The notes under the pieces were generated by a model. The model worked only from the letters and a program-made list of their open reading frames with translations, searched no databases and was not told where the DNA came from. A program made the position numbers and the translations under genes. From Candidatus Nanopelagicales bacterium (lineage in GTDB: Bacteria; Actinomycetota; Actinomycetes; S36-B12), in assembly GCA_018402235.1 (NCBI GenBank), contig JAGYJJ010000002.1, positions 92,069-156,068 on the forward strand: 64,000 nucleotides of DNA, read 5' to 3'. Shown here piece after piece: positions 1-55,981 of this stretch. The stretch's first letter is position 1, and the number at the start of each line of letters is the position of its first letter.

Positions 1-999
1 CGCGGTGATCAAATCGGGGATGACTTCAGCCACATCACCCACGATCGGGATGTCCGCATGCCGATTCTTGCCGATCTCCGCCGGATCAATATCTGCGTGA
101 ATAACCGATGCGTTCGGGGCGAAGCTCGACAGCTTGCCAGTCACACGATCATCGAAACGAGCGCCCAAAGTGATCAGTAGATCGGACTTTTGCAGCGCGC
201 CTACTGCTGCGACCGTTCCGTGCATCCCTGGCATGCCCAGGTGCTGCAGATGGGAATCGGGGAATGCGCCCCGCGCCATCAACGTCGTGACGACCGGGAT
301 CCCGGTGAGCTCAGCAAGGCGGCGCAGTGTTGCCGAAGCGCCAGCGCGAATCACGCCACCACCCACGTACAGCACCGGCTGCCGAGAGGCGAGGATTGCT
401 CGCGCTGCTTCGCGGATCTGCTTAGAGTGCGGCCGGGTGACGGGGTGGTAACCGGGCAAATCGATCTCGGTCGGCCACGCGAACTCGGTACTTGCTTGCA
501 GCGCGTCCTTCGAGATGTCTACGAGCACCGGACCGGGGCGACCGGTCGATGCCAGGTGAAACGCCTCGGCGATCGCGCGCGGGATCTCATCGGGGTTGGT
601 CACCAGGAAGTTGTGTTTGGTGATGGGCATCGTGATACCGCGAATGTCTGCCTCTTGGAACGCATCGGTGCCGATCGCGGCGCTTGGGACCTGACCGGTG
701 ATGGCAACCATCGGTACCGAGTCCATATGGGCGTCCGCGATCGGGGTGACCAGGTTGGTGGCACCCGGTCCGCTCGTGGCCATGCACACACCCACGCGTC
801 CGGTGGCTGCGGCGTAACCCTCCGCCGCGTGCCCAGCCGCCTGCTCGTGACGAACGAGAATGTGGCGGACCTTGGTGGAATCCATCAAAGGGTCATATAC
901 CGGAAGGATCGCCCCACCGGGAATGCCGAAGACCACATCAACGTCGGCGGTCTCCAACGACCGCACCAAAGAGTCGGCTCCGGTGATCTGCTCGCCCAT
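1..999 (-). CDS. ilvB: acetolactate synthase (AHAS) large subunit, N-terminal ~333 codons; 3' end lies beyond the window start
   Basis: My reverse-strand translation from ATG 999-997 gives [63 protein letters not shown]...[28 protein letters not shown], a typical TPP-dependent AHAS N-terminus. It is missing from the ORF track because it has no stop inside the window. The 190..1062 + ORF is its antisense shadow. Confidence 0.9.
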
Positions 1000-1035
1000 C
1001 TGCTCTTTCCTGTCTGGTTTTCGGTGGTACGAATG

Positions 1036-1068
1036 AAAAACCCTCCACACCCGGGTGGGTAGGAGGGA
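1036..1068 (-). terminator. putative attenuator terminator in the ilvB leader (GC-rich hairpin followed by T5 on the minus strand)
   Basis: Minus strand reads CTCCCTCCTACCCACCCGGGTGTGGAGGGTTTTTCATTCG. CCCTCC pairs with GGAGGG around an inner CACCC/GGGTG stem, followed by TTTTT. It lies about 35 nt upstream of the ilvB ATG and downstream of the leader ORF. Confidence 0.5.
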
Positions 1069-1089
1069 GCGCGCGGTTGACGGGGTGCG

Positions 1090-1140
1090 TCAGCGAGCGC
1101 GCCTGGGTACTACGAGAATTCGTGCGGTGCTTGTGGTCAC
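1090..1140 (-). promoter_or_regulatory. candidate ilvB leader peptide ORF (16 aa, MTTSTARILVVPRRAR)
   Basis: Minus strand reads GTG ACC ACA AGC ACC GCA CGA ATT CTC GTA GTA CCC AGG CGC GCT CGC TGA. It has a consecutive Ile-Leu-Val-Val run just upstream of the terminator-like hairpin. Leader-peptide attenuation of ilvBNC is known in Corynebacterium. The Shine-Dalgarno spacing is poor (GGGAG abuts the GTG). Confidence 0.45.
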
Positions 1141-1261
1141 TCCCGAACTGTAGCCCCTGGCGCCCCACCTGTCACGCCCCGGGGCCTTTTCCTCTCAGGT
1201 CCCCCGAGGGCAGTGGCGGAATGAAGCACATTTCGCCAGGGATTGGCGCAACGACCGTCGT

Positions 1262-1286
1262 TCGGCCAGCCCCTGGCGGAAAGTGC
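1262..1286 (-). other. conserved non-coding 25-mer downstream of ilvD copy 1 (minus strand GCACTTTCCGCCAGGGGCTGGCCGA), preceded by a C-rich tract
   Basis: 24 of 25 nt are identical to 8541..8565 downstream of ilvD copy 2, at the same offset (about 17 nt) from the stop codon. The flanking coding DNA of the two paralogues is visibly much more diverged. Confidence 0.7.
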
Positions 1287-1303
1287 GGGGAGGGATGGGG
1301 CGG

Positions 1304-3001
1304 TTAGCCCGTGATGGCGCCCTTCGAGGCGCTGCCCACGAGTTTCACGTATTTGCCCAGCACTCCCCGGTCGTAGCGGGGCGGCAGCGGGGTGAGTACC
1401 GCGCGGCGCTGCGCCAACTCGGACTCATCGACCAGCAGGTCCAAAGTCCGGTTCGGGATATCGATGCGAACCTGATCCCCGTCGGCCACCAGCGCGAGCG
1501 GGCCCCCATCGGCGGCCTCCGGACACACATGCCCCACGCACAACCCTGTAGTCCCTCCGGAGAAGCGACCGTCGGTGACCAACAGCACGTCCTTACCAAG
1601 ACCCGCGCCCTTGATCGCGGCGGTGATCATCAGCATTTCGCGCATGCCCGGTCCACCCTTGGGGCCCTCGTAACGAATAACGACGACGTCCCCCGCCTGA
1701 ATCGTCCCGTCTTCGAGAGCTGCCATCGCCGCTTGCTCTCGATCGAAAACCCGGGCGGCGCCTTCGAAAACATCGACCGGCACCCCGGCGTTTTTCACTA
1801 CCGCGCCATCAGGACACAGCGAACCGCCGAGAATCGTGATGCCGCCGGTAACACCGATCGGGTTGTTGAGCGGGCGCACCACCGTGCCGTCGATATCAGG
1901 TGGGTTCATGTCGGCGAGGTTCTCGGCCACCGTCTTGCCGGTCACTGTTAGGCAATCTCCGTGCAACAGACCGGCATCAAGCAGTGCCTTCATCACGACG
2001 GGAACTCCACCAACCTGGTCAAGGTCGAACATCAAGTACTCACCGAAGGGCTTCAAATCGGCGATGTGGGGAACCTTCTGACCGATGCGGTGAAAGTCAT
2101 CGATTCCCAGATCCACACCAACTTCGTGGGCAATCGCCGGAAGGTGAAGTACTGCGTTGGTTGAACCACCGAGGGCCATAATCACCGCAATGGCGTTCTC
2201 CAAGGATTGCTTGGTGATGATGTCGCGTGCGGTGATCCCCTGACGGATCATCTCCACAACGGCCTCCCCACTTCGACGCGCCAGGGTGTCCCGTCGAGCG
2301 TCGACTGCTGGCGGTGAGGAGGAGCCGGGGAGAGCCAACCCCATCGCTTCGGCGGCACTGGCCATGGTGTTCGCGGTGTACATGCCGCCGCAGGTTCCCG
2401 CGCTGGGACACACGGCTCGCTCAATGCGGTCAACGTCGTCGTCGTTCATCAACCCACGGGCACGCGCGCCAACTGCCTCGAACGCCGTAACGATATTGAC
2501 GGTGTGCTCACTGCCGTCGGATAGGCGCACATGTCCCGGCAGCAGCGACCCCGCGTAGAGCAAGACGGCAGCAATGTCGAGTCGCCCGGCCGCCATCATC
2601 ATTGCCGGAATGGACTTATCGCACCCTGCAAGTGTGACCATCCCATCGAGGCGCTCGGCTTGCATGACCGTCTCGACCGAATCGGCGATCACCTCACGGC
2701 TTACGAGCGAGAAATGCATACCTTCGTGACCCATCGAAATGACATCCGAGACGGTGATCGTTCCGAATTCCATCGGGAATCCGCCACCGGCCTCAATGCC
2801 CTGGGCAACTCCAACGGCCACGTCGCGCAATGACATATTGCACGGCGTGATCCGGTTGTAACTATTGGCTATTCCGATCTGCGGCTTGTCGAAATCGGCA
2901 TCATCCATGCCAAGAGCGCGCAACATCCCCCTGTTGGGCGCACGGTCGGGACCTTCGGTCACTAGGAAACTGCGGGGTTTCATCTGCGAGGGGGATGTCA
3001 T
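1304..3001 (-). CDS. ilvD: dihydroxy-acid dehydratase, copy 1 (565 aa, the more divergent paralogue), directly upstream of the ilvB leader
   Basis: ORF track 565 aa. IlvD/EDD hallmarks are present: [61 protein letters not shown]. Confidence 0.9.
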
Positions 3002-3103
3002 TCTCGTAGTCTAGGAAGCATCGTCAGCGGGGGTGCACACACCGACTACCGTCGCGGTTTAACAGACCGCACGCACATAGACACAGCACCGAGAGAAGGC
3101 GAC

Positions 3104-3961
3104 GTGAGCTACCGCACGATCATCACCCCGCGACAACTGCACGACCTTTCGCAATCTGGTGACGAACTCGTCATCTTGGATGCGCGTTTCAATCTCGATG
3201 ACGAGCAGTGGGGTGATCGCGCATTCACCGAAGGACACATTCCCGGCGCCCAACGCGCCGACCTGGCTCGTCACATGTCCGGGGAAATCATCGAGGGAAA
3301 AACCGGACGCCGACCCTTTCCTGACTCCGGAGCATTCGCCGAGACCATTCGCTCGTGGGGAGTCGGCCCGGCTACGCAGGTGGTGGTCTACGACGCCGAC
3401 CGCGGCCTGATGGCAGCCGCGCGCGCGTGGTTCATGCTGCGCTGGATGGGTCACGACGATGTGGCGGTCCTCGATGGCGGTCTGCCCGCGTGGGAAGCTG
3501 CCGGCTTCACGCTCACGAACGCTGCGGAAACTGCTCCAGTGCCGTCGTCGTCCTTCGAGCCGCGTGTTCGCGAGGAGATGGTGGCGGACGTGGAAGAAGT
3601 AGATGCGATGCGCGAGTTAGTTCCCACGCGCGTGTTCGACTCCCGGGGCCCGGAGGGCTATCACGGAAAGGGAAAGTACTACGACCCCGTCCGCGGGCAC
3701 ATCAAGGGCGCTGGACTGGCCGATCGAGCCGAGACGATCACCGAGCAAGGACAATTCCGGAGTCCGGAGCAACTGCGAGCGCACTACGACGCCCTGCGCG
3801 CTGGGCAGGACGCTCACGACATCGTCTTCTACTGCGGGTCCGGGGTTACCGCTGCTCAGAATGTGCTCGCCATGGAACATGCCGGACTTCCTGGAGCGCG
3901 GATGTACATCGGATCGTGGAGCGAATGGATCATCGATCCCAGCCGCGAGGTAGAACTGTGA
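3104..3961 (+). CDS. sseA: tandem-rhodanese thiosulfate/3-mercaptopyruvate sulfurtransferase (285 aa)
   Basis: ORF track 285 aa with GTG start. It has two rhodanese domains and the active-site loop YCGSGVTAAQ. Its stop overlaps the next start (GTGA at 3958-3961). Confidence 0.8.
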   Translation: MSYRTIITPRQLHDLSQSGDELVILDARFNLDDEQWGDRAFTEGHIPGAQRADLARHMSGEIIEGKTGRRPFPDSGAFAETIRSWGVGPATQVVVYDADRGLMAAARAWFMLRWMGHDDVAVLDGGLPAWEAAGFTLTNAAETAPVPSSSFEPRVREEMVADVEEVDAMRELVPTRVFDSRGPEGYHGKGKYYDPVRGHIKGAGLADRAETITEQGQFRSPEQLRAHYDALRAGQDAHDIVFYCGSGVTAAQNVLAMEHAGLPGARMYIGSWSEWIIDPSREVEL

Positions 3962-4986
3962 AGCGCCCCTATCGATTCGCACTCATCGGTTGTGGCTTTT
4001 TCGCCCAGAACCACCTCAAGGCGTGGGCAGACATGCCCGAAGTTGAACTGGTCGCCACCTGCGATATCGACGAGGCGAGCGCTACCGCGGCCGCCCGCGA
4101 TTTTGGTGGCCGGGCGTACACAGATGTTGCGGAACTGTTCGCCAACGAAGAGTTAGATTTCGTAGATATCGCTACTACCCCACCAACGCACCGGATGATG
4201 GTGGAACTCGCGGCCGAGCATGGCGTAGCGGCTATCTGCCAAAAGCCCCTCGCGTGGGACATGGCCGACGCCAAAGCGATGGTCAAAGCGATGGCCGATA
4301 AGGGCCTACCGTTCATGGTGCACGAGAATTTCCGATTCCAGTACCCAATGCGCAAGGTCAAGGAAGTCCTCGATAGCGGCGCCATCGGACGGCCGTTCTT
4401 TAGCCGCATCAGTTTTCGCACCGCGCACGATGTCTACTCAGCTCAGCCTTGGTGCATGGACGCAGATCGCATGATCATCGCCGACGTATCCGTGCATCAA
4501 TTCGATCTGACGCGCTTTTTCATGGGCGAACCCGATCGGCTGTTCACCGATGCCGATCCGCGTGAATCCGAAGATCAAAGGCGAGGACGTCGCCACGATT
4601 GTTCTGTCCTTACCGGGGGCTACCTGCATCGTGGATACCAGCTACGAAAGCAAGTCCGATCACAGTACGTATCCGCAGACCTTCGTCGCCATCGAAGGCA
4701 CTGAGGGAACGATCACTCTGGGCCCGGACTACCACCTGCAGGTGGTCTCCCCGCAGGTATTCACGAGGAGACACTCGTCATTCCAGAACACTCCTGGACG
4801 TCGGAGCCGTGGGATTGCATCCAAGACAGTGTGGTGAATGTGCAGCGACACTGGATTCATTGCCTCAACACGGGGGCGTCCCCAGAAACAAGCGGAGCAG
4901 ACACGCTCCGCGTGCTGGATCTCACCTTGGGTGCCTACCAGTCGCTGGAGAGCGGGGAGCCTTACCGCGTGGGCAGCATGTTGTGA
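3958..4986 (+). pseudogene. Gfo/Idh/MocA-family NAD(P) oxidoreductase, interrupted as sequenced by two compensating frameshifts (~4550-4558 and ~4745-4752)
   Basis: Frame 1 (from GTG 3958) gives VKRPYRFALIGCGFFAQNHLKAW...HQFDLTRFFMGEPDRLFT. Frame 2 continues the homology with RVNPKIKGEDVATIVLSLPGATCIVDTSYES...GPDYHLQVV. Frame 1 resumes with AGIHEETLVIPEHSWTSEPWDCIQDSVVNVQRHWIHCLNTGASPETSGADTLRVLDLTLGAYQSLESGEPYRVGSML*. Frame 1 itself hits a stop at 4702-4704. Confidence 0.75.
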
Positions 4987-6746
4987 ATCAGACCTTCACG
5001 ATCGGTGATCTTCAGGTCACCGTTGACGGCATCGAACTGCGCGATATCCGTTGGCAGGGCTACGAGGCGATTCGCCGCATCTACCCGGTTTTTCAGGATC
5101 GCAACTGGACGAACCGGCCATTCTCCATCGATGAATGTTCGACAGACAGCACGTCAGATGCGGTGAACCTCAACGCGAGCGGAACCGGTTCCTTCGATGC
5201 CGAGCCGCTGAGTTGGGAAGTCCAGGCTCGCATCAGCGACGATGCCATCGCGTATCACTTCACGGCGCAGTCCACGTCGTCCTTCCTCCGCAATCGACTG
5301 GGGCTGTGCGTACTTCATCCGATGTCCGCAGCCGGGAGCACCTGCCAGGTGGAACACACCGACGGGAGCCACACGAATTCAGCGCTTCCCGAGACAATCT
5401 CCCCGCACCAACCGTTCGTAGACATTCGAGCGATCACTCATGCGCTTCCGGGCGGGGGCACGGCGACCGTACGCATGACCGGCGAAACCTTCGAAATGGA
5501 GGATCACCGGAACTGGACGGATGCCTCGTTCAAGACCTACTGCACGCCCATCTCGCTGCCTTTCCCCGTTGAGGTAACTCCCGGCGCGATCATCGAACAG
5601 CACGTTTCGGTGACGTTTACCCCCGGCGATCCCGCCACCACTCAGCCTTCGGACACCATCACGATCAGCTTCGATGATCACGTAACGGACCTACCTCGAC
5701 TGGGAACGTGCCTACCCGCTGATTCCCGGACGCTAACCAACGTTCAAGCCGAACAGTTCGCCACTCTCAGCCTCGACCACCTACGCATCGACCTCGATCC
5801 GAGCGCTACGGACGCAACGGATCAGTTGGCAGCCGCCGCCCAATCTGCTTACCGAATAGGTACCCACCTGCGAGTCAGCACTACCTGCGAGGACCCATCC
5901 CAGTTGCACACCTTCGCGGACGCGCCCACGGACGTCACCTCACTGATCGACTGCTGGTACGTGTTCAGCGCGAACCACAAGGTCACGCCAACGCAGTGGG
6001 CATCGGAAGCCCGGGCAGTCCTCGGCCCTGGTTTCGATCACGTTCGACTAGGCGGTGGCACGAATCTGTATTTCACCGAGCTCAACCGAGAACCACCGGA
6101 CACACTGGCGTTCGACGTCCTGAACTTCTCGATCAATCCTCAAGTACACGCGTTCGATGACCAAACTCTGATTCAGAACACCATGACCCAGCAGATAGTG
6201 GCGGAGAACGCCATTCGATTGACCGAACCCGCCGAACTATCTGTAGCGCCGATCACGCTTCGCCCGCGATTCAATCCGAACGCGACCGATCCCGAAAGCG
6301 ACGTCAGCAACACGGCGCTGCCCAGCGATGTTGATGCCCGTCAACGCACGTACTTCGCCGCACATTGGGCCGCGATGAGCATCAAATACCTGGCAGCCGC
6401 CAACTGCGTTGATGTGGCAACCTATTTCGAGGCGGTCGGCTGGCGGGGAATCATGGAATCGCCCTCAGGTTCGCCTGATACTGCGAACTTCCCGAGCGGC
6501 CCCGACGAACTTTTCCCCGTCTGGCAGGTATTCGAGGCGCTTGCAGACATGACGCACGCGCACACGTGCACTTCAAGTGCACCCGAGCTGGTCGACGCAC
6601 TGATCGTTTCCAATTCCACTGGCGCAAGTCGTGCTCTCATAGCCAATTGGAGCGATCAGGCTCGCTCCGTCACGATCTCCGGACGCACCACTGTCATGAT
6701 CGAGCCTCTTGAACTCACCATTCTCGAATTGATTGCCGCCCCCTAA
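4983..6746 (+). CDS. conserved hypothetical protein (~587 aa), translationally coupled to the Gfo gene; function unknown
   Basis: GTG at 4983 overlaps the upstream TGA (GTGA). Coding-like sequence runs from VNQTFTIGDLQVTVDGIELRDIRWQGYEAIRRIYPVFQDRNWTNRPF... to the stop at 6746. The upstream part of the 715-aa track ORF (4599-4982) is out-of-frame read-through of the Gfo gene. I recognise no family motif. Confidence 0.65.
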   Translation: MNQTFTIGDLQVTVDGIELRDIRWQGYEAIRRIYPVFQDRNWTNRPFSIDECSTDSTSDAVNLNASGTGSFDAEPLSWEVQARISDDAIAYHFTAQSTSSFLRNRLGLCVLHPMSAAGSTCQVEHTDGSHTNSALPETISPHQPFVDIRAITHALPGGGTATVRMTGETFEMEDHRNWTDASFKTYCTPISLPFPVEVTPGAIIEQHVSVTFTPGDPATTQPSDTITISFDDHVTDLPRLGTCLPADSRTLTNVQAEQFATLSLDHLRIDLDPSATDATDQLAAAAQSAYRIGTHLRVSTTCEDPSQLHTFADAPTDVTSLIDCWYVFSANHKVTPTQWASEARAVLGPGFDHVRLGGGTNLYFTELNREPPDTLAFDVLNFSINPQVHAFDDQTLIQNTMTQQIVAENAIRLTEPAELSVAPITLRPRFNPNATDPESDVSNTALPSDVDARQRTYFAAHWAAMSIKYLAAANCVDVATYFEAVGWRGIMESPSGSPDTANFPSGPDELFPVWQVFEALADMTHAHTCTSSAPELVDALIVSNSTGASRALIANWSDQARSVTISGRTTVMIEPLELTILELIAAP

Positions 6747-6759
6747 CCGAAAGGACGCC

Positions 6760-7581
6760 ATGCGACCCGCACCTGCCCTGCCTCCCACCACCGAGTTATT
6801 CCGTATGGATGGAATGCGCGTTTTGCTCACCGGGGCTGGCGGCGCCATCGGGTCCGTTCTCGCCCGAGCATTCGCGGACCTTGGTGCCGTGGTTACCGTC
6901 CATGACCTGACAACCGACAAAGTCCAACCGTTGGTTGCAGCAATCGAGGAAGCCGGCGGCACCGCATACGCCCTCTCAGCCGACATCTCCCACGCTGACC
7001 AGTGTTCGAGATTGATTGATGAAGCCGTGGCAACCATGGGTGGTCTGGACGTACTCGTCAATGGCGCGGGCATCAACCGACGCAAGCCGATCCTCGAAGT
7101 GACGGTGGATGACTTCGACGCCATCACCGCAGTGAACATGCGTGCGGTGTACTTCCTCAGCCAAGCTGCACACCCGCACCTCAAGAGCTCCGGGCGCGGT
7201 TCGATCGTGAACTTGAGTTCGCTGAGTGCCCGTTACAGCTTCAATACCATCTCCGTCTATGCGGCAACCAAAGCCGCGGTATCGGGCATGACGCGCAGCT
7301 TCGCACGCGAGTGGGTCAAGGACGACATCCGCGTGAACTGCATCGAGCCCTCAGTAGTGCAAACAGAGTTCACTAAGCCGCTGTGGGGTGAAGACCACCG
7401 GTATCGCTGGTTCGAAGACACAACGCCCATCGGCCGTCTTGCTCAGGCCAACGAACTGGTGGGAGCGGTCATCTTCTTGGCCACCCCGGCCTCGAGCTAC
7501 ATCACCGGACAATCCATCGTGATCGAGGGCGGAATCCTCGCTGGCGGCGATTGGGATTCCTACGCGGAGAACAATTCCTGA
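6760..7581 (+). CDS. short-chain dehydrogenase/reductase (SDR) family oxidoreductase
   Basis: ATG 6760 is preceded by AAAGGAC. Motifs present are TGAGGAIG (NAD-binding), NGAG, and a Y-x3-K catalytic pair (YAATKAAV). The 3' end overlaps the convergent FAH gene by 22 nt. Confidence 0.85.
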   Translation: MRPAPALPPTTELFRMDGMRVLLTGAGGAIGSVLARAFADLGAVVTVHDLTTDKVQPLVAAIEEAGGTAYALSADISHADQCSRLIDEAVATMGGLDVLVNGAGINRRKPILEVTVDDFDAITAVNMRAVYFLSQAAHPHLKSSGRGSIVNLSSLSARYSFNTISVYAATKAAVSGMTRSFAREWVKDDIRVNCIEPSVVQTEFTKPLWGEDHRYRWFEDTTPIGRLAQANELVGAVIFLATPASSYITGQSIVIEGGILAGGDWDSYAENNS

Positions 7582-8402
7582 CGCTGCTCGCCCAGTCCGG
7601 TGACGCCCAAAGTCATGACGTCACCTGCGTGCAGGTATCCGGGCTCGGCCATTCCCATAGCCACGCCCGGGGGCGTTCCGGTGTTCACCAGATCCCCTGG
7701 CTCGAGGACCATGAATTGGCTCACGTGGTGAAGGATTGTCGCCACGTTGAAGATCATGTCGTGGGTAGAGCCGGTTTGGCGCCGCTCGCCATTTACATCG
7801 CACCACAGGTCAAGACCCGCCGATAGATCCACCTCATCGGGCGTGACGAGCACCGGGCCACACGGGTTGAACGTCTCGCACGACTTCCCCTTGATCCATT
7901 GGCCGCTGCCACGATTGAGTTGCCACTCACGCTCGGAGACGTCGTTGCTGATGGCGAAACCGGCTATGTGGGACAGCGCCTGCTCCGGTGATTCCAGATA
8001 ACGGCACTGCTTGCCGATCACCACAGCCAACTCGACTTCATAGTCGACCTTCGTGGCTCCGCGGGGGATGCGAACATCGTCATAAGGGCCAACAAGACAG
8101 TTAGGTGCCTTGGTGAACAAGATCGGTTCTTCGGGAACTTTCATGCTGGATTCGTTGGCGTGGTCCACGTAGTTCAAGCCCACACACAAGATCGTGCTGG
8201 GGCGGGCAATCGGAGCACCGATGCGCCCGGAGACGACCGGAAGGGAGCCACTATCGAGCCCACGCAGCCGCTCCATACCGTCGCCCGCAAAGAAGGCCGG
8301 ATCGAAATCGTCGATCACGGCGGAGACATCTCTGTAGCTTCCGTCCACCGCCACCACGGCGGGAACCTCTCCCCCGAAATCACCGATTCGAACCAACCGC
8401 AT
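7560..8402 (-). CDS. fumarylacetoacetate hydrolase (FAH) family protein (280 aa)
   Basis: ORF track 280 aa. FAH-family signatures are present: VGLNYVDHANE, DYEVELAVVIGK, GTPPGVAMG. Confidence 0.85.
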   Translation of the reverse strand: MRLVRIGDFGGEVPAVVAVDGSYRDVSAVIDDFDPAFFAGDGMERLRGLDSGSLPVVSGRIGAPIARPSTILCVGLNYVDHANESSMKVPEEPILFTKAPNCLVGPYDDVRIPRGATKVDYEVELAVVIGKQCRYLESPEQALSHIAGFAISNDVSEREWQLNRGSGQWIKGKSCETFNPCGPVLVTPDEVDLSAGLDLWCDVNGERRQTGSTHDMIFNVATILHHVSQFMVLEPGDLVNTGTPPGVAMGMAEPGYLHAGDVMTLGVTGLGEQRQELFSA

Positions 8403-8540
8403 GTGCTTCTTCCCTTCATAGTGTTGTCGCGTGTTTGCGTCGTCGTCGTTCTAATGAGTGAAACATCGCCCCAGCTGACCCCATCGTGCGTGTGGCGAAA
8501 AGTTGGACAATCCGCCGCACCCTGGCGCACTGACGACCAA

Positions 8541-8565
8541 TCGGCCAGACCCTGGCGGAAAGTGC
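8541..8565 (-). other. second copy of the conserved non-coding 25-mer, downstream of ilvD copy 2 (minus strand GCACTTTCCGCCAGGGTCTGGCCGA)
   Basis: See 1262..1286. It has the same position relative to the TAA stop and is also preceded by a C-rich tract (CCCCCCCACCCCTCGT). Confidence 0.7.
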
Positions 8566-8581
8566 ACGAGGGGTGGGGGGG

Positions 8582-10270
8582 TTAATCGGTCACGGCACCC
8601 TTTGAGGCGCTGCCCACCAACTTGGCGTACTTCGACAGCACACCCCTGGTGTAGCGCTGGGGTAACGGCTGAAATTCCGCACGCCGCTCAACCAAGTCGG
8701 CATCGTCCACCAACAGTTCGAGCCTTCGATTCGGGATGTCGATACGAATGCGGTCACCATCGCGCACCAATCCGATCGGTCCACCGTCTACGGCCTCGGG
8801 TGCAACGTGACCCACGCATAGCCCGGTGGTGCCACCAGAGAATCGACCGTCGGTGATGAGTAGCACGTCCTTGCCTAGGCCCGCGCCCTTGATCGCACCG
8901 GTGATCATCAACATCTCGCGCATACCCGGACCACCCTTGGGGCCCTCGTAACGGATAACCACGACGTCGCCGGCCTGGATCGTCCCGTCCTCGAGCGCCG
9001 CCATGGCCGACTGCTCGCGCTCAAACACCCGCGCCGTTCCCTCGAAAACCTCCACCGGGATACCGGCGTTCTTCACCACCGCACCTTCAGGGCACAGCGA
9101 TCCAGACAAGATCGTGATGCCACCGGTCGGGGCGATCGCCTGCTTTGATGCCTTCAAGATCGTGCCGTCGGGGTCTGGCGGTGCGATATCGGCCAGGTTC
9201 TCTGCCATGGTCTTGCCGGTGACCGTCAGGCAGTCGCCATGCAACAGGCCTGCATCAAGCAGCGCGCGCATGATCACCGGTACCCCACCCACGCGGTCCA
9301 CATCACTCATCACGTAGCGGCCGAAAGGCTTGACGTCCGCCAACAGTGGCACCTTCGAGCCGATGCGGTGGAAGTCCTCCATTTCCAATTCGACGTGGGC
9401 CTCGTGGGCGATCGCGAGCAGATGAAGTACCGCATTAGTTGAGCCGCCGAAAGCCATCAAAACTGCAATCGCGTTCTCCAGCGACTGTCGCGTGATGATG
9501 TCGCGGGTGGTGATGCCCTGGCGTAACAACTCGACCACAGCTTCACCGCTCTTGCGCGAATATTCATCACGTCGGCGATCTACGGCCGGAGGTGCAGCTG
9601 ATCCGGGCAGCGACATACCCATGGCTTCGGCAGCACTAGCCATGGTGTTGGCCGTGTACATGCCACCGCACGCACCTTCACCTGGGCAAATGGCCCTCTC
9701 GATGAGGTCGACGTCTTCGCGCGACATGAGCCCACGTGCGCAGGCACCAACGGCTTCAAAGGCGTCGATGATCGTGACATCCTTCTCTGTGCCATCAGAG
9801 AGTTTCACGTGTCCGGGCAGGATCGATCCTGCATAGACGAACACGGCAGCGATATCCAGCCGGGCGGATGCCATCAACATGCCGGGCAGCGACTTGTCGC
9901 AGCCAGCGAATGTCACGATGCCATCAAGACGCTCGGCCTCCACAACCGCTTCCACGGAATCGGCGATGATCTCGCGGCTGACAAGGGAGAAGTGCATTCC
10001 CTCGTGCCCCATCGAGATGCCGTCGGAAACCGAGATCGTTCCAAACTCCATCGGGAAACCACCTGCGGCAAAGACGCCCTCCTTGGCGGCTGTCGCGAGC
10101 CGATCCAAGGACATGTTGCAGGGGGTGATCTCATTCCAGCTGGAGGCAATGCCTATCTGTGATTTGGTGAAGTCTTCGTCCCCCATACCGACCGCGCGCA
10201 GCATTCCGCGCGCCGCGGCCCGCTCGAGTCCGTCCGTTACGTCTCGGCTACGTGGCTTGATATCAGGCAT
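8582..10270 (-). CDS. ilvD: dihydroxy-acid dehydratase, copy 2 (562 aa, the more canonical paralogue)
   Basis: ORF track 562 aa. Motifs present are [67 protein letters not shown] and [11 protein letters not shown]. By eye about three quarters of residues are identical to copy 1. Confidence 0.9.
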
Positions 10271-10306
10271 GACAGCACAGTAGTGCGCCTACGTGAAGGC
10301 GACAGA

Positions 10307-11197
10307 TCAGGGAGCAACCACGTTTTCCAAAGGCTCACCACTACGCCACCGCTGCACCTGCCTGGCGATGAGTTGTCGGGCCAAGCGAGGGAACGCATCC
10401 GTGTCGCCGCCTATGTGAGGCGTGATCAAAACCCCGGGGGCAGCCCACAGTGGATGATCGGCTGGCAGCGGTTCTGGATCGACCACATCAAGAGCGGCTT
10501 CTATCCGGGGGAGGTGCGCAAGGAGATCGTCAGTGACCACAACCGGGCCACGTGCCACATTGACTAAGAGCGCTCCATCAGCCATTCGCGCCAAAAAGGC
10601 GCTATTAACCATGCCGTCGGTCTCCGCGGTGAGAGGAACGGCAAGAACTACGACGTCGGCAGCGCCTAGGAGATCGGGGAGTTCATCGGCTCCGGCAATG
10701 CGGTCACGTCGAGAGCGTCCCACTAATTGAATGTGACAGCCCAACGGCGCGAGAGCATCGGCGATGCCGCGCCCCACGCCACCAGCACCGACGACAAGTA
10801 CTCGGGAATCTTGCAGTGATCGTCCGCGACGGTGCTTCCATGCGCCTTCGGCCATATCGCGCGCTGCCCGATCAACGCCTCGCCACTTGGCGATGATCAA
10901 GCCCACCGTCAGCTCGGCTGTGCTCTGCTCGTGAACGCCTGCGGCATTGCAAAGCGTTACCCCTTCGGGGAGGTACGTCAGTGCCGCATCGAAACCAACG
11001 GTGGGCAGTTGCGCCACCTGCAGTGCCGGAAACCGGGCCATCCACTCGGGGTTCGGACTATCGATGTAGTCAGGAACAAAGAAGCCCACGCCGCCGCGAA
11101 CTACTTCGTCGGGTAGTTGACCCGGTGCGTACGTGACACAGTCCGCGATATCAGCAGGTGCCAGCAGCTCAGGGACGAGAACCAGGTCACCCGGCAC
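10307..11197 (-). CDS. D-isomer-specific 2-hydroxyacid dehydrogenase family protein (296 aa)
   Basis: GTG start lies 5 nt after the gatB stop. Motifs present are VLVVGAGGVGRG (NAD fold), VNVARG, and ITPHIGG (catalytic His). Confidence 0.8.
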   Translation of the reverse strand: MPGDLVLVPELLAPADIADCVTYAPGQLPDEVVRGGVGFFVPDYIDSPNPEWMARFPALQVAQLPTVGFDAALTYLPEGVTLCNAAGVHEQSTAELTVGLIIAKWRGVDRAARDMAEGAWKHRRGRSLQDSRVLVVGAGGVGRGIADALAPLGCHIQLVGRSRRDRIAGADELPDLLGAADVVVLAVPLTAETDGMVNSAFLARMADGALLVNVARGPVVVTDDLLAHLPRIEAALDVVDPEPLPADHPLWAAPGVLITPHIGGDTDAFPRLARQLIARQVQRWRSGEPLENVVAP

Positions 11198-11202
11198 GTT
11201 CG

Positions 11203-12723
11203 CTACCCCTCGACTCCCAGATGCGCCAGCAAGAGAGTTCGCACCTTCGCGGCATCGGCCTGACCCTTCGTGGTCTTCATCACCGCTCCCACGATAGCGC
11301 CGGCGGCTTGTACCTTGCCCGAGCGGATTTTCTCGGCAACATCGGGCTGCTCGGCCAAGGCGGACTCAATTGCAGCCATCAGCGTTGAGTCATCGCCCAC
11401 CACCGCTAAACCGCGACCAGCGATAACGGAGTCGGGGTCACCTTCCCCCGCCACTACTCCTTCGAACACCTGACGCGCGAGTTTGTCGGTCAACGAGCCA
11501 TCGGCGATGAGCGATTCGACTCGGGCGATATGGGCCGAAGTGATCCCCAGATCGGCGAGGGCAACGCCCTGCTCATTTGCGATTCGCGTGAACTCACCGG
11601 TCCACCATTTGCGGGCTGCTGCCTGATCAACGCCTGCAACGATGGTTTCCTCGACAAGGTCGAGTGCTTCGGCATTGACCAAAGTCTGCATTTCCAGATC
11701 GCTGACGCCCCATTCCACCTGCAGCCGCGAACGCCGCACCGAAGGCACTTCCGGCAAGGTTGTTCGTAGTTCCTCGATCCACTCAGAGCTCGGCGCAACG
11801 GGCACAAGATCTGGTTCGGGGAAGTAGCGATAGTCCTCGGCTTGTTCCTTGGATCGACCCGGCGTGGTCTCGCCGGTGTCTTCGTGGAAATGCCGCGTTT
11901 CTTGGATGATGCGGCCACCCTCGGACAGCACGGCCCCCTGACGCTCGATCTCAAAGCGGACGGCTCGCTCAACCGAGCGCAAGGAGTTCACGTTCTTGGT
12001 CTCCGAACGGGTCCCCCACGGTTCGCCCGCCGGCGCTAGCGAGACGTTCACATCGCAGCGCAAAGACCCCTGGTCCATGCGCACATCGGAAACCCCGAGG
12101 GCCCGCATCAGATCGCGCACTTCTGCCACGTACGCACGAGCGACCACCGGGGCCAGCGCACCCGCGCCGGTAATCGGTTTGGTGACGATCTCGATAAGCG
12201 GAATGCCTGCCCGGTTGTAATCGACCAGGGAGTAGTCCGCGCCATGGATGCGGCCAGTATCGCCACCGGAGTGGGTGAGTTTGCCGGTGTCCTCTTCCAT
12301 GTGAACGCGTTCGATCTCAACCCGGAACTCTCGCGGGCCATCGTCGGTTGGAACAGTCACGTCGAGGTAGCCGTTGGTGCAAAGCGGCTCGTCGTACTGA
12401 CTGACCTGGTAGTCCTTAGGCATGTCCGGATAGAAGTAGTTCTTGCGAGCGAAGCGGCACCACGACGCAATATCGCAGTGCAGGGCAAGCCCCATCCGAA
12501 TGGTCGATTCCACCGCTACCGCATTCACAACGGGAAGCGAGCCCGGCAGACCCAGGCAGACCGGACAGACCTGCGTGTTCGGTTCTCCACCGAACTCGGT
12601 CGCGCACGAGCAGAACATCTTGGAGGCGGTACCAAGTTCGACGTGCGTCTCCAGACCCAGGACCGGCTCGAAGCGCTCCAGCGCTTGGTCGAAGTCCATA
12701 CGAGTGTTCACTACGGAAGTCAT
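11203..12723 (-). CDS. gatB: Asp-tRNA(Asn)/Glu-tRNA(Gln) amidotransferase subunit B
   Basis: Homology starts at [35 protein letters not shown] 12723 overlaps the gatA stop (ATGA). The 12 upstream codons of the track ORF are rejected. Confidence 0.9.
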
Positions 12724-22072: not shown

Positions 22073-22865
22073 ATGACCGAGGAATTCCTCACGGGCGAAC
22101 GAACATGGCCGGGCGTTCCCCGCGAGAACTACTGGTTCATGCGGCATCTGGCCTGCTACCGATGGGCCGCGACGGTCATCGACCGCCAGGCCCCGAGCGG
22201 ATGGATTCTCGATGCCGGTTCCGGCGAGGGCTACGGCACCGCCGAACTTTCGACGGGATGTGATCGAGACGCTGTTGGGGTCGGAACTTGATGCCGCCAC
22301 CGCTCACCACGCTCGAGGCCGTTACCCACGTGTATCGCATGTTCAAGCAAATCTCATTGCGTTGCCATTCCAGTCCCGAAGCATCGCCGCCTGCGTCTCG
22401 CTCCAGGTAATTGAGCACATCTGGGATCCGGTCACCTACCTTCGCGAGCTTGCCCGTTGCACAGCGGGTCCGGTGATTATCAGTACGCCCAACCGGCCCG
22501 TTCACTCACCCGGCCTCGCCCGCGGCAAACGCCCCGAGAACCCTTTCCATGTGCGCGAGTTCGACGCCCTGGAGTTGGTAGAACTCCTCGCAACCGCAGA
22601 TTCCGGCCGCACACCTGTTCTCTACGGCGTGCGTCACGGTCAACGGCTACGTGCGTGGGAGAACGAAAGCCGGTCCCTGCCGCAAGCCCTCATAGAAGAG
22701 CCCGATGCATCGGACGTTGCCGCTGTCGCTGGCACGGTTGCGGTCGACGATTTCACGATCGAAGTGATCGAGATCGACACCATCGATATCGACACCATCG
22801 ATATCGACACCATCAATGCGGACGAGGCGGGTTTGGACGTTCATGACTTGGTTGCGGTGTGGTGA
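22073..22865 (+). pseudogene. class I SAM-dependent methyltransferase (Rv3030-like), frameshifted as sequenced near 22280-22284
   Basis: The frame from ATG 22073 gives MTEEFLTGERTWPGVPRENYWFMRHLACYRW...ILDAGSGEGYGTAELS..RDAVGV, then a stop. The homology continues in the next frame with ELDAATAHHARGRYPRVSHVQANLIALPF...LQVIEHIWDP. Removing one G from GTCGGAACTT restores AVGVELDAA. Confidence 0.75.
22773..22817 (+). repeat. in-frame 15-bp tandem repeat x3 (ATCGACACCATCGAT, third copy with 1 mismatch) encoding (IDTID)n in the methyltransferase C-terminus
   Basis: Seen directly at 22773-22787, 22788-22802 and 22803-22817. Confidence 0.85.
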
Positions 22866-28101: not shown

Positions 28102-30194
<2,093 letters not shown>

Positions 30195-30196
30195 GT

Positions 30197-30277
30197 CCTC
30201 GGATCATTTGCCCTCGGATCATTTGCCCTCGGATCATTTGCCCTCGGATCATTTGCCCTCGGATCATTTGCCCTCGG
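30197..30277. repeat. perfect 15-bp tandem repeat CCTCGGATCATTTGC x5 plus a 6-nt partial copy, intergenic between glgX and the aldo/keto reductase
   Basis: Seen directly. Copies start at 30197, 30212, 30227, 30242 and 30257, with the partial at 30272-30277. It begins 3 nt after the glgX stop and ends 18 nt before the AKR ATG. Confidence 0.95.
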
Positions 30278-30294
30278 GGAATAGGCTCGGGTGC

Positions 30295-53505: not shown

Positions 53506-53539
53506 CTAGATCTCCTCCCAACACCCATGGCATCCGACG

Positions 53540-53591
53540 CAACAACCCCCGACTCGTATCCTGGCATACGTAACGAGTCGGGGGTCGTTGT
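53540..53591 (-). terminator. stable hairpin between the sulfur operon and fbiC (no clear U-tract)
   Basis: A 12-bp perfect stem CCCCCGACTCGT / ACGAGTCGGGGG (53546-53557 and 53573-53584) has additional flanking pairs and a 15-nt loop. Confidence 0.4.
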
Positions 53592-53630
53592 GTGGAAATT
53601 GTCTTGCGGAGTGAAACGTTGGACAGGTGA

Positions 53631-55124
53631 CTACTTGGTTGCCACCTTCGTTGCGCCCTGACCAGGAGCGAACTCGCGGACTGTGGCCCGTGATGCGAGC
53701 CAGGTCCAACCGGGCTCTCGCGCGGGGGCGTCCTCGGAGACGATCTCCAGGCCACATGCTGCTGCATTGCCGAAGTCGTCATCCACGTGGACGATGTTGT
53801 CGAACCCGGCGTTTTGCAGGACCGAAGCCACCGCGGCTGCGCGGTAACCCGAGCCGCAGTAGACGTACACGTCCACATCTCGTGGCAACTCGCCCATGCG
53901 GTCGAGCACTTCGTAGAAGGGAATGAACTTCGCGCCCTTCACATGGCCAGACTCCCATTCAAGAATCTGGCGGGTGTCGATGACGACCGAATTCGGATTC
54001 GCCTTCCACTCCTTGGCCATCTCTTCAAAGTCAACGCGGCGCAGATAAGCCGGCTGCTCACCGTCTTCGATCCAGAAGTCCGGGCCACCCACTGCTTGGC
54101 CGGCGGGTCGATCGATACCGATGCGGACCAACTCGCGCTGCGCAGCTTCGACCTGTTCGGTGGTTGCCCCGACCAACGTGATGGGTGTTCCCCACGGAAC
54201 CATCCAGCCGAGGTAGTTGATGAACGCACCGTCGAGGTCGAAGTTCACCGCCCCGGGAACGTGACCGGATGCGAAAACCTCGCGCGAACGCAGATCAACT
54301 ACCCACTCCCCGGCCGCAACGCGCCGACGTAACTGCGCCGGATCCACCGGCTCGGGCAGTGACAGATCGATTTCCTTCGGCCCTGCTGCGTTAGCGGGGC
54401 CCATGTGGGCGTAGTACGCAGGGAAGACGTCCAGGCCCGCGATCAGCATCTCGACAAAGTCTTCTTCGGCCTGGGTCAGCGCCGGGTTGATGCTCTTTTC
54501 CTGACCCAGGGATGTCTGCACACCCTCCGTCTGGATGGACGAGCAGAACGAACCAAATCCATGCGTCGGGTAGATCTGCGTATCCCCGGGCAATGAATCC
54601 ACAAGGCGATGTGCTGAGTGCCACTGATCGTGGGCCTGCTTGACGGTCAGGTCCGGTGCCACGAGGTCGGGGCGACCAACCGTTCCGTAGAGCAGTGAGC
54701 CACCGGTGAACACCGCACCAGGATGGTTGTCGCGGCTAACGGCGAAGGAGATGTGATGCGGCGTATGACCGGGTGTGTGAACAACGCGGACGTCTAGGTC
54801 ACCCACGCGGAATTCACCGCCCTCACCCATGGCAACCACATTCGGCTCACCGAGGTAGTCCAGTTCGACGTCGGCGGGCACCACGTAGGTCGCACCGTGC
54901 TTCTTCGCGAACTGGTAGCCACCGTTGACGTAGTCGTTGTGGATATGTGTCTCACCGACATGGGTCACGGTCAAGCCATGTTCAGCGATGAGTCTCTCGA
55001 CACGATCGGTGTCACGCTGCGGATCGACGACCAGCGCGTGGACTCCGTCGTGGACTATGTAGCCCCGGTCCCCTAGGCCGGGTGTATCAATCACGATCAC
55101 ATGGGGGGCACTAGTAGCTGTCAT
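53631..55124 (-). CDS. MBL-fold hydrolase fused to rhodanese domain(s) (persulfide-dioxygenase/sulfurtransferase, CstB-like architecture, 497 aa)
   Basis: The N-terminal metallo-beta-lactamase motif GETHIHNDY and HTPGHTPHH are present. C-terminal rhodanese domains carry the active-site loop YCGSGYRAA. Confidence 0.75.
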   Translation of the reverse strand: MTATSAPHVIVIDTPGLGDRGYIVHDGVHALVVDPQRDTDRVERLIAEHGLTVTHVGETHIHNDYVNGGYQFAKKHGATYVVPADVELDYLGEPNVVAMGEGGEFRVGDLDVRVVHTPGHTPHHISFAVSRDNHPGAVFTGGSLLYGTVGRPDLVAPDLTVKQAHDQWHSAHRLVDSLPGDTQIYPTHGFGSFCSSIQTEGVQTSLGQEKSINPALTQAEEDFVEMLIAGLDVFPAYYAHMGPANAAGPKEIDLSLPEPVDPAQLRRRVAAGEWVVDLRSREVFASGHVPGAVNFDLDGAFINYLGWMVPWGTPITLVGATTEQVEAAQRELVRIGIDRPAGQAVGGPDFWIEDGEQPAYLRRVDFEEMAKEWKANPNSVVIDTRQILEWESGHVKGAKFIPFYEVLDRMGELPRDVDVYVYCGSGYRAAAVASVLQNAGFDNIVHVDDDFGNAAACGLEIVSEDAPAREPGWTWLASRATVREFAPGQGATKVATK

Positions 55125-55860: not shown

Positions 55861-55895
55861 CCGCGCTTCCCCAGGAAGCGTCCCCTTCCACACTC

Positions 55896-55962
55896 CCCGA
55901 TGCGGTGTCAGTCGTCGGTGGGAAATCCACCGGATTTCCCCGACGACTGACACCGCATCGGG
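55896..55962. terminator. 67-nt near-perfect hairpin (about 31 bp stem with one 2-nt bulge, 3-nt loop) between convergent genes; candidate bidirectional terminator
   Basis: CCCGATGCGGTGTCAGTCGTCGGTGGGAAATCC-ACC-GGATTTCCCCGACGACTGACACCGCATCGGG. Confidence 0.6.
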
Positions 55963-55981
55963 CGTTATGGGGTCGGGCGTT

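Follow-up and report, generated by a model that had tools for sequence, protein, structure and literature searches.

The two ilvD genes and their locus

The stretch analysed here (the window; 64,000 nt of contig JAGYJJ010000002.1 from a Candidatus Nanopelagicales bacterium) contains two paralogous dihydroxy-acid dehydratase genes, ilvD1 and ilvD2, each of which is followed, directly past its stop codon, by a copy of the same non-coding element. This element, referred to as type A, is better conserved than the synonymous sites of the two genes and folds into a hairpin. The genes and the two copies are:

1304..3001, minus strand: ilvD1, a divergent dihydroxy-acid dehydratase paralogue within a sugar-acid catabolic cluster (NCBIfam TIGR00110, 724 bits)
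8582..10270, minus strand: ilvD2, the canonical, vertically inherited ilvD (TIGR00110, ~724 bits)
7560..8402, minus strand: fumarylacetoacetate-hydrolase (FAH) family gene, the first gene downstream of element copy 2 and part of the sugar-acid cluster
1199..1303, minus strand: element copy 1 (type A, ~105 nt), recognised by its homology to copy 2 (nhmmer E = 8.5e-23; covariance model 113 bits)
8477..8581, minus strand: element copy 2 (type A), whose first base directly follows the ilvD2 stop (nhmmer E = 2.2e-22; covariance model 111 bits)

Read along the minus strand, gatB and a 2-hydroxyacid dehydrogenase gene are followed by ilvD2, the element and the FAH gene, and then by an opposite-strand block (genes for an SDR, an apionate-lactonase-like protein, a GFO/MocA oxidoreductase and a rhodanese-domain protein), ilvD1, the second element and the ilvB leader. 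The sugar-acid cluster, comprising window positions 3104-8402 plus ilvD1, therefore sits between the canonical ilvD2 and ilvBNC.

Scanning 185,579 species-representative genomes with ilvD1 yielded 80 loci, 78 of which are closer to ilvD2 (72-86% identical, across Actinomycetota) than to ilvD1. Since gatB lies upstream in many of these loci, and since the canonical ilvD leads straight into the ilvB leader in several Nanopelagicales, ilvD2 is regarded as the vertically inherited gene. Orthologues of ilvD1, at 88% identity, occur in just two of the 80 loci, the metagenome-assembled genomes (MAGs) L001 and L002, and all relatives seen at 87-96% identity come from MAG or metagenome contigs. The cluster genes are present in every examined contig of those relatives that reaches upstream. 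In L001, L105 and L106, the ilvD1 orthologue is followed instead by a gene for pterin-4a-carbinolamine dehydratase. This neighbour, together with the cluster membership, suggests that ilvD1 may encode a dehydratase of sugar acids and not a branched-chain amino-acid enzyme, despite passing the ilvD equivalog cut-off.

A shared block past both stop codons

The first-pass annotation of this DNA had described a minus-strand 25-mer (GCACTTTCCGCCAGGGKCTGGCCGA) downstream of both genes and proposed that the flanks are better conserved than the genes themselves. The 25-mer is present at only two sites of the window, 1262-1286 (GCACTTTCCGCCAGGGGCTGGCCGA) and 8541-8565 (GCACTTTCCGCCAGGGTCTGGCCGA), which are identical at 24 of 25 positions, and a search of the 64 kb allowing up to three mismatches returned the same number of matches, compared to zero expected from 100 shuffles. 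It begins 16-17 nt past the stop codons, TAA at 1304-1306 for ilvD1 and TAA at 8582-8584 for ilvD2. The accompanying features were also found where they had been described: the C-rich tracts between stop codon and 25-mer (1287-1303, minus strand, 17 nt, CCGCCCCATCCCTCCCC, in copy 1; 8566-8581, minus strand, 16 nt, in copy 2), the GGTCGT shared by both flanks (ACGACC on the plus strand, 1251-1256 and 8533-8538), the GCCAG-N3-CTGGC inverted repeat within the 25-mer, and the proximity of copy 1 to the ilvB leader region, whose promoter lies ~50 nt downstream of the copy-1 hairpin.

Taken by itself, a score of 24/25 is not unique, because ten 25-nt windows within the ilvD1/ilvD2 coding alignment reach it as well, as a result of protein constraint. 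The formal alignment of the two flanks is more informative. The non-coding homology is near-gapless over 91-105 nt, starts at the first base past the stop, and amounts to 73/104 identical positions, as compared to 37% (91/245) at the fourfold-degenerate sites of the two genes (Fisher p = 1.4e-8). The paralogues are 75% identical in amino-acid and 70% in nucleotide sequence, and their fourfold sites are saturated. The first-pass observation is thus borne out.

The first-pass annotation had missed that the 25-mer constitutes the 5' arm of a 61-nt imperfect hairpin, which is itself part of the ~105-nt block:

1226..1286, minus strand: copy-1 hairpin (-37.6 kcal/mol, z = -5.75, its stability reached by none of 200 shuffles), followed by the tail TTCATTCC
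8505..8565, minus strand: copy-2 hairpin (-29.3 kcal/mol, z = -1.85), with the same layout as copy 1 but weaker, followed by the tail AACTTTTC

The copy-1 hairpin ranks third in stability among all 70-mers of the window on both strands. Copy 1 is also much more palindromic (48/61 self-complementary positions, compared to 34/61 in copy 2), and the differences between the copies are concentrated in the apical stem and the 3' arm. This clustering suggests that few complex events, rather than many independent substitutions, separate the two copies. When three type-A copies are compared, the third being located in the related contig L086, 86% of the cells of 24 proposed pairs are paired, compared to 28-44% in slid controls, and three pairs are altered on both sides. 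The three sequences thus lend modest support to the view that hairpin pairing is maintained. A scan of positions 1-12000 with the Rfam 15 covariance models at E values up to 10 returned three chance hits, none of them at the elements.

Distribution among relatives

None of the 80 species-level ilvD loci contains the 25-mer when up to six mismatches are allowed, and an nhmmer profile search over L001-L083 revealed no further copy of the element. L001 combines both paralogues in a window-like order, in which an ilvD2-type 3' end (TAG) is followed by a 59-nt spacer, the hydrolase gene, the opposite-strand block and the ilvD1 orthologue (TAG). The DNA beyond this orthologue is unrelated to the window, and neither of the two flanks in L001 carries the element.

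Closer relatives of ilvD1 share the full gene order on their contigs and are 93-96% identical in amino-acid and 80-84% in DNA sequence. Fourfold-site identity of 37-50% shows that they represent distinct species. The two ilvD flanks in these contigs are occupied as follows:

This window: type A after ilvD2 (TAA); type A after ilvD1 (TAA)
L086: type A after ilvD2 (L086:4433-4539, TAA, nhmmer E = 5.6e-15, covariance model 94 bits); empty after ilvD1 (TAG, 10 nt, then the promoter)
L103, an assembly independent of L086: ilvD2 site not covered; empty after ilvD1, as in L086
L084 and L085: type B after ilvD2 (TAA); type B after ilvD1 (TAA)
L097-L101: ilvD2 site not covered; type B after ilvD1 (TAA)
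L087-L096: after ilvD2, L088 has TAG and a 66-nt spacer without the element; after ilvD1, TAG and a ~50-nt spacer whose opening matches the 5' arm at 15/17 positions (z = 3.8)
L104: ilvD2 site not covered; a third kind of spacer after ilvD1 (TAG)
L105 and L106: ilvD2 site not covered; no element after ilvD1, as in L001

Two hairpins built on CCCGG-TAT-CCGGG make up type B, the interior of which is identical between both sites in L084 (39/39). Inspection by eye hints at homology between types A and B, but this homology does not reach significance in shuffle controls. The same applies to the spacers of L104 and L088 in comparison with type A; only the 17-mer remnant of L087 held (z = 3.8). A weak site-specific signature is found in the leaders of type-A and most type-B genomes, which open with TAACCGCCCC at the ilvD1 site, as copy 1 does, and with TAACCCCCCC at the ilvD2 site. 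The spacer between ilvD2 and the FAH gene measures 179 nt in the window, compared to 59 nt in L001 and 66 nt in L088, both of which lack the element. Furthermore, an element with a C-rich leader always follows TAA, while the empty sites in close relatives and L001 are TAG; L105 and L106 have TAA yet no element.

Wider searches revealed no dispersed copies. The type-A covariance model detected only the known copies in 17 close-relative loci, and nhmmer and the covariance model together detected only the two ilvD flanks in the 64-kb window, plus one generic hairpin hit of 26 bits. Scanning metagenomes with a 21-mer core gave three hits, all of them chance matches inside unrelated coding sequences, and a viral collection contained no match.

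Two minor observations concern this comparison. In L095 (2268-2330), the remnant past the ilvD1 stop contains a tandem triplication of ~13 nt (CCGCTAGGGGAGT), indicating that instability is ongoing at the ilvD1-stop site. The sequence CGCCAGGGTCTGGCCGAT of copy 2 is matched at 17/18 positions in the Actinomycetota loci L008, L041, L045, L058, L062, L064 and L065, in most of them ~1.8-2 kb downstream of ilvD; this recurrence is probably a codon-level coincidence, apparently inside a predicted ilvB.

Constraint on the element

Type-A blocks at orthologous positions after ilvD2 are identical at 84/99 positions (85%) between the window and L086, as compared to 126/302 (42%) of the fourfold sites (p = 1.9e-14). 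The coding DNA on either side of this element shows ordinary identity (0.76-0.83), which excludes a recent recombination tract between the window genome and L086, and this explanation was therefore rejected. Eight differences fall within the 61-nt hairpin, mostly at unpaired positions or in wobble-compatible form. Thus, judged from these alignments, the type-A block is not neutral DNA, being more conserved than synonymous sites between copies as well as between orthologues. The core CTTTCCGCCAGGGNCTGGCCG is unchanged in all three type-A copies. At the one variable position of the 25-mer, G is found at the ilvD1 site (window and L087 remnant) and T at the ilvD2 site (window and L086), so that this difference may be site-specific across species.

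These data bear on the proposal that the block is a function-less by-product of recent gene conversion between the two flanks, in which case the similarity would reflect recency instead of selection. The high similarity within genomes (A/A in the window; B/B in the L084 group, with its 39/39 interior) is in line with such an origin, and the clustered differences between copies 1 and 2, with their unequal palindromes (48/61 and 34/61), likewise suggest few complex events. However, the ilvD2-site orthologues are 85% identical despite near-saturated fourfold sites and without raised identity in the adjacent coding DNA, and site-specific coding sequence extends all the way to the stop. In addition, copy 1 is equidistant from copy 2 (70%) and from the L086 copy (71%), which argues against recent conversion from copy 2. 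Unless copy 1 evolves faster, the split between the two copies of the window is thus no younger than that between these species. A by-product of recent conversion is accordingly considered improbable.

The pronounced conservation of the 5' arm could alternatively reflect a double-stranded DNA operator, i.e. a 13-17 bp palindrome, (CC)GCCAG-GGN-CTGGC(CG), recognised by a dimeric regulator that co-controls both loci, with type B supplying an equivalent site (TCCCGG-TAT-CCGGGA). The palindrome-bearing arm is indeed the best-conserved part of the element, and 5-3-5 palindromes occur in both types. An 11-mer of the 5' arm (CGCCAGGGGCT, 1268-1278) moreover recurs in the spacer of the ilvB promoter (1152-1162), where it is conserved in relatives, but this recurrence is not significant by itself (E = 24). 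The palindromes of types A and B are unrelated, so that a single regulator cannot be conserved across both; the sites are at gene 3' ends, the cluster contains no regulator gene, and the far larger hairpin already accounts for the symmetry. No resemblance was noted between the element and known actinobacterial operator motifs (CIRCE, Cheo box and others). An operator is therefore viewed as slightly less probable than a neutral conversion tract.

Origin of the element

In the first-pass annotation, the block was interpreted as a functional 3' element that was retained after gene duplication. The two halves of this interpretation have to be separated. Structural constraint is supported by the 85% versus 42% identity and by the preserved pairing, whereas retention is contradicted by L001, which has both paralogues in the window layout and the element at neither site, and by sister lineages in which the sites are empty or occupied by a different hairpin. 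Absence of the motif downstream of ilvD in relatives had been named in advance as evidence against retention, and such absence is largely what the comparison with related genomes shows. Conservation above synonymous sites can therefore mislead with respect to age: it is genuine in this case, yet the genes are older than the element.

An ancient functional 3' module, kept since the ilvD duplication as a Rho-loading site, a small RNA derived from the 3' untranslated region or a protein-binding site, would be consistent with the conservation of the block above synonymous sites, with the invariant core CTTTCCGCCAGGGNCTGGCCG and with the possibly site-specific G/T difference. Against such a module, the element is missing not only from both flanks of L001 but also from every more distant canonical ilvD, and the closest group carries a different sequence at both sites. 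The assignment to a Rho-utilisation module fits poorly as well. The C-rich tract comprises just 16-17 nt and the C/G ratio reaches 1.6-1.75 only in the first 60-nt window, owing to this tract; elsewhere, it is 0.55-1.24, near 1, and the DNA is strongly folded, whereas a rut site requires ~70-80 nt of unstructured RNA that is rich in C and poor in G. Together with the lack of an Rfam match at E values up to 10, these findings make an ancient module very improbable.

The comparison between species mostly shows that the block is a lineage-restricted, replaceable gene-end cassette, younger than both the ilvD1/ilvD2 divergence and the locus layout. The older age of the paralogues and of the layout, the patchy spread of the element and the tendency of both sites in a genome to carry one type suggest that it was gained later and copied between the flanks. 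It would have arisen once the order ilvD2 - sugar-acid cluster - ilvD1 - ilvBNC already stood, and would have reached both 3' ends by copying from one ilvD flank to the other, either by ectopic gene conversion or by insertion at the stop codon in copy-and-paste fashion. Sister lineages would have lost it by deletion, or would have acquired a hairpin of another sequence in its place at both sites. At least one wholesale replacement at both sites is evident from the distribution of types A and B. Ectopic gene conversion is favoured by the pairing of types within genomes (A/A in the window, B/B in the L084 group) and by the weak site-specific leader signature. Insertion at a fixed point is favoured by the start of the block exactly at the stop codon in every case, by the association of TAA with C-rich-leader elements and of TAG with empty sites, and by coding ends that are site-specific up to the last codon.

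Insertion also brings in a small non-autonomous mobile element, such as a MITE (miniature inverted-repeat transposable element), a repetitive extragenic palindromic (REP) sequence or a SPRITE-like element, which inserts at the TA of the stop codon and landed behind both ilvD genes independently; types A and B would then be family variants of different genomes. Filled and empty sites at exactly the same position in close relatives (L086 and L103 for ilvD1; L088 for ilvD2) and in L001 (ilvD2) agree with this possibility, as do the presence of one type at both sites of each genome, and a length of ~105 nt with a stable fold, which is typical of MITEs (PMC3184786). The TAA-versus-TAG pattern is compatible with insertion at TA, but TAA without an element occurs in L105 and L106, and the 3' boundary offers no matching duplication that can be defined. 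The ends of copy 2 are complementary (ACCCCTCGTGC and GCACGATGGGGT; 3/300 shuffles), yet inverted-repeat ends are not significant in four of five copies. A mobile element should moreover occur elsewhere, but no other copy was found in the 64-kb window, in ~128 kb of close relatives or in the 80 other loci, the viral collection gave no match and the metagenomes gave chance coding hits only. Type B is likewise confined to the ilvD flanks in the L084 and L085 contigs. The non-significant A/B homology weakens the idea of one family, the two copies of a ~105-nt unit do not resemble REP sequences or bacterial interspersed mosaic elements, which are palindromes of 20-40 nt in high copy number accompanied by a RAYT transposase, and conservation of the orthologous copy far exceeds the neutral rate, unlike that of a selfish insert. 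A mobile element is hence considered unlikely, although it stands ahead of the other alternatives.

More speculatively, and on a par with the ancient module in its low probability, the blocks could be exchangeable stop-codon cassettes, installed and swapped at stop codons by a hairpin-recognising recombination or transposition system that acts on single-stranded DNA, by analogy with attC sites or IS200/IS605 elements. Such a system would explain why the boundary coincides with the third base of the stop codon, why both sites switched from A to B and why the 5' arm is conserved beyond pairing. An actual integron attC site was considered, since TAAC follows the gene, but was discarded on inspection by eye: the 3' end lacks a GTTRRRY partner, and ilvD is a core gene, not a cassette. 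No integrase was found among the called genes of the relatives' loci; the window itself was not searched for one.

Predicted function

The element has the stable GC-rich hairpin just past a gene, here starting 17-18 nt after the stop codon, that characterises intrinsic terminators. The tails contain 3-5 T in 8 (TTCATTCC, AACTTTTC, CTCTTTTC, TTCATCCC, TTCTTCC) in a genome with ~19% T; the two tails in the window, with 4 T in 8, exceed this background and resemble the tail of the ilvB attenuator (TTTTTCATTC). The hairpin with its moderately U-rich tail can therefore be read as a sub-optimal intrinsic terminator and/or a stem-loop protecting the RNA 3' end, and the element is probably a weak transcription terminator. 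Copy 1 would prevent read-through from ilvD1 into the attenuator-controlled ilvBNC promoter, and copy 2 would keep ilvD2 apart from the catabolic genes. As the ilvD1 cluster is located between the canonical ilvD and ilvBNC, insulation of these units is a plausible selective need. Selection would act mainly on base pairing, in which case the block would evolve more slowly than synonymous sites and would still be swappable for another hairpin.

This reading is compatible with the finding that mycobacterial RNA polymerase terminates at imperfect U-tracts, assisted by NusG (Czyz et al. 2014, PMC3993855). The same study limits it, since actinobacterial RNA polymerase showed no in vitro termination at hairpins without a U-tract, and a terminator role is thus plausible but not assured.

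Several further observations weigh against the combined account of origin and function. A simple terminator scan calls neither copy, because it requires 5 T in 8. The ilvD1 site lacks the element in L086 and L103, showing that it is dispensable there. Conservation of 24/25 in the 5' arm versus ~60% in the 3' arm between copies 1 and 2, together with the partnerless remnant in L087-L096, is not predicted by purely structural selection, and the covariation rests on three type-A copies and is hence thin. Finally, both types have their boundary precisely at the stop codon, which ordinary gene conversion explains poorly. Taken together, the later gain and copying of the block between the flanks and its role as a terminator or protective hairpin are given a probability of roughly 0.5.

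Relation to known gene-end elements

Intrinsic terminators with sub-optimal U-tracts, as described for Actinobacteria (PMC3993855), resemble the element in having a GC-rich hairpin soon past the stop with a partly U-rich tail and in lying between transcription units, and comparable hairpins are present at other gene ends in the window. The element deviates from them by its tail of 3-5 U in 8, which fails a standard scan, by its 61-nt hairpin with internal loops, by its C-rich leader, and by a sequence that is common to two paralogous gene ends.

TRIT, a palindromic motif that numbers 147 copies per genome and is restricted to Mycobacterium, overlaps the end of the coding sequence, with its centre around -8 (Gardner et al. 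2011, PMC3152330); because its sequence is conserved, a factor that binds it has been suggested. The element likewise is a palindromic gene-end motif with conserved sequence and structure at a tightly fixed distance to the stop. In contrast to TRIT, from which it is set apart by description, it is present in two copies in a Nanopelagicales-like lineage, with the hairpin at +17. SPRITE of pneumococci is a ~105-bp element in many copies (reviewed in Delihas 2011, PMC3184786). SPRITE and MITEs share with the element the length of ~105 nt, an RNA that folds stably, a layout resembling a terminator, intergenic positions and the existence of filled and empty sites. They differ from it in that dispersed copies, consistent inverted-repeat ends and target duplications were not seen here, and in that the orthologue is constrained. 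Because copy number, taxon and detectable sequence differ, the element should not be filed under either TRIT or SPRITE.

Paralogous loci can undergo concerted evolution by ectopic gene conversion, as exemplified by tufA and tufB. Likewise, the two ilvD flanks of one genome are more alike than orthologous flanks are (A/A in the window, B/B in the L084 group). The difference is that only the non-coding 3' flank appears to be exchanged, with a boundary at the stop codon, while the coding sequences stay diverged (37% at fourfold sites). By analogy, the element would work like a gene-end terminator hairpin, whereas its history would resemble concerted evolution limited to the 3' flank. It is a lineage-specific member of a familiar class, the gene-end hairpins, with an unusual history. 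Canonical terminators are scarce in high-GC Actinomycetota. If the terminator role holds true, the two ilvD flanks represent a compact natural case of gain, homogenisation, deletion and swapping of gene-end hairpins in this group.

The ilvB leader and other features of the window

The leader region next to copy 1 comprises three features:

1147..1175, minus strand: promoter of the ilvB leader, GTGACA-N17-TACAGT, 96-98% conserved in relatives
1090..1140, minus strand: ilvB leader peptide MTTSTARILVVPRRAR* with an ILVV run, read from the sequence and conserved in relatives
1031..1067, minus strand: terminator of the ilvB attenuator, CCCTCC...GGAGGG followed by TTTTTCATTC, 97-98% conserved

The attenuator region as a whole (1031-1175) is 96-98% identical to relatives with near-saturated synonymous sites, and its terminator is canonical, with TTTTT. 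The transcript is probably leaderless, with a predicted start at the GTG of the leader peptide.

Long GC hairpins are also located 20-30 nt past the stops at other gene ends of the window, namely at 53531-53600 and 55896-55965, the latter between convergent genes. The hairpin at 53531-53600 (minus strand, -41.3 kcal/mol) follows the stop of the gene at 53631-55124 by ~30 nt, and its T tail is weak. Of the sequences in its upstream flank, GTTTCACTC is also found in the DNA downstream of copy 2, and TTCCACAC in the hairpin at 55.9 kb, neither match being significant alone. The latter hairpin (55886-55974, -60.6 kcal/mol) has perfect 23-bp arms and an inner 8-bp stem, together with a leader rich in C and a trailer rich in G, the latter having ATGGGGTC in common with copy 2, and it scores 26 bits on the type-A covariance model. 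It was considered as a diverged copy of the element and rejected, as only the general layout and an 8-mer are in common; it is probably a generic gene-end hairpin, and a looser class of such elements could exist in this genome.

Tandem repeats with a 15-nt period are found at 30182-30292 (CCTCGGATCATTTGC, ~5-6 times) and at 22758-22817 (ATCGACACCATCGAT, ~3 times).

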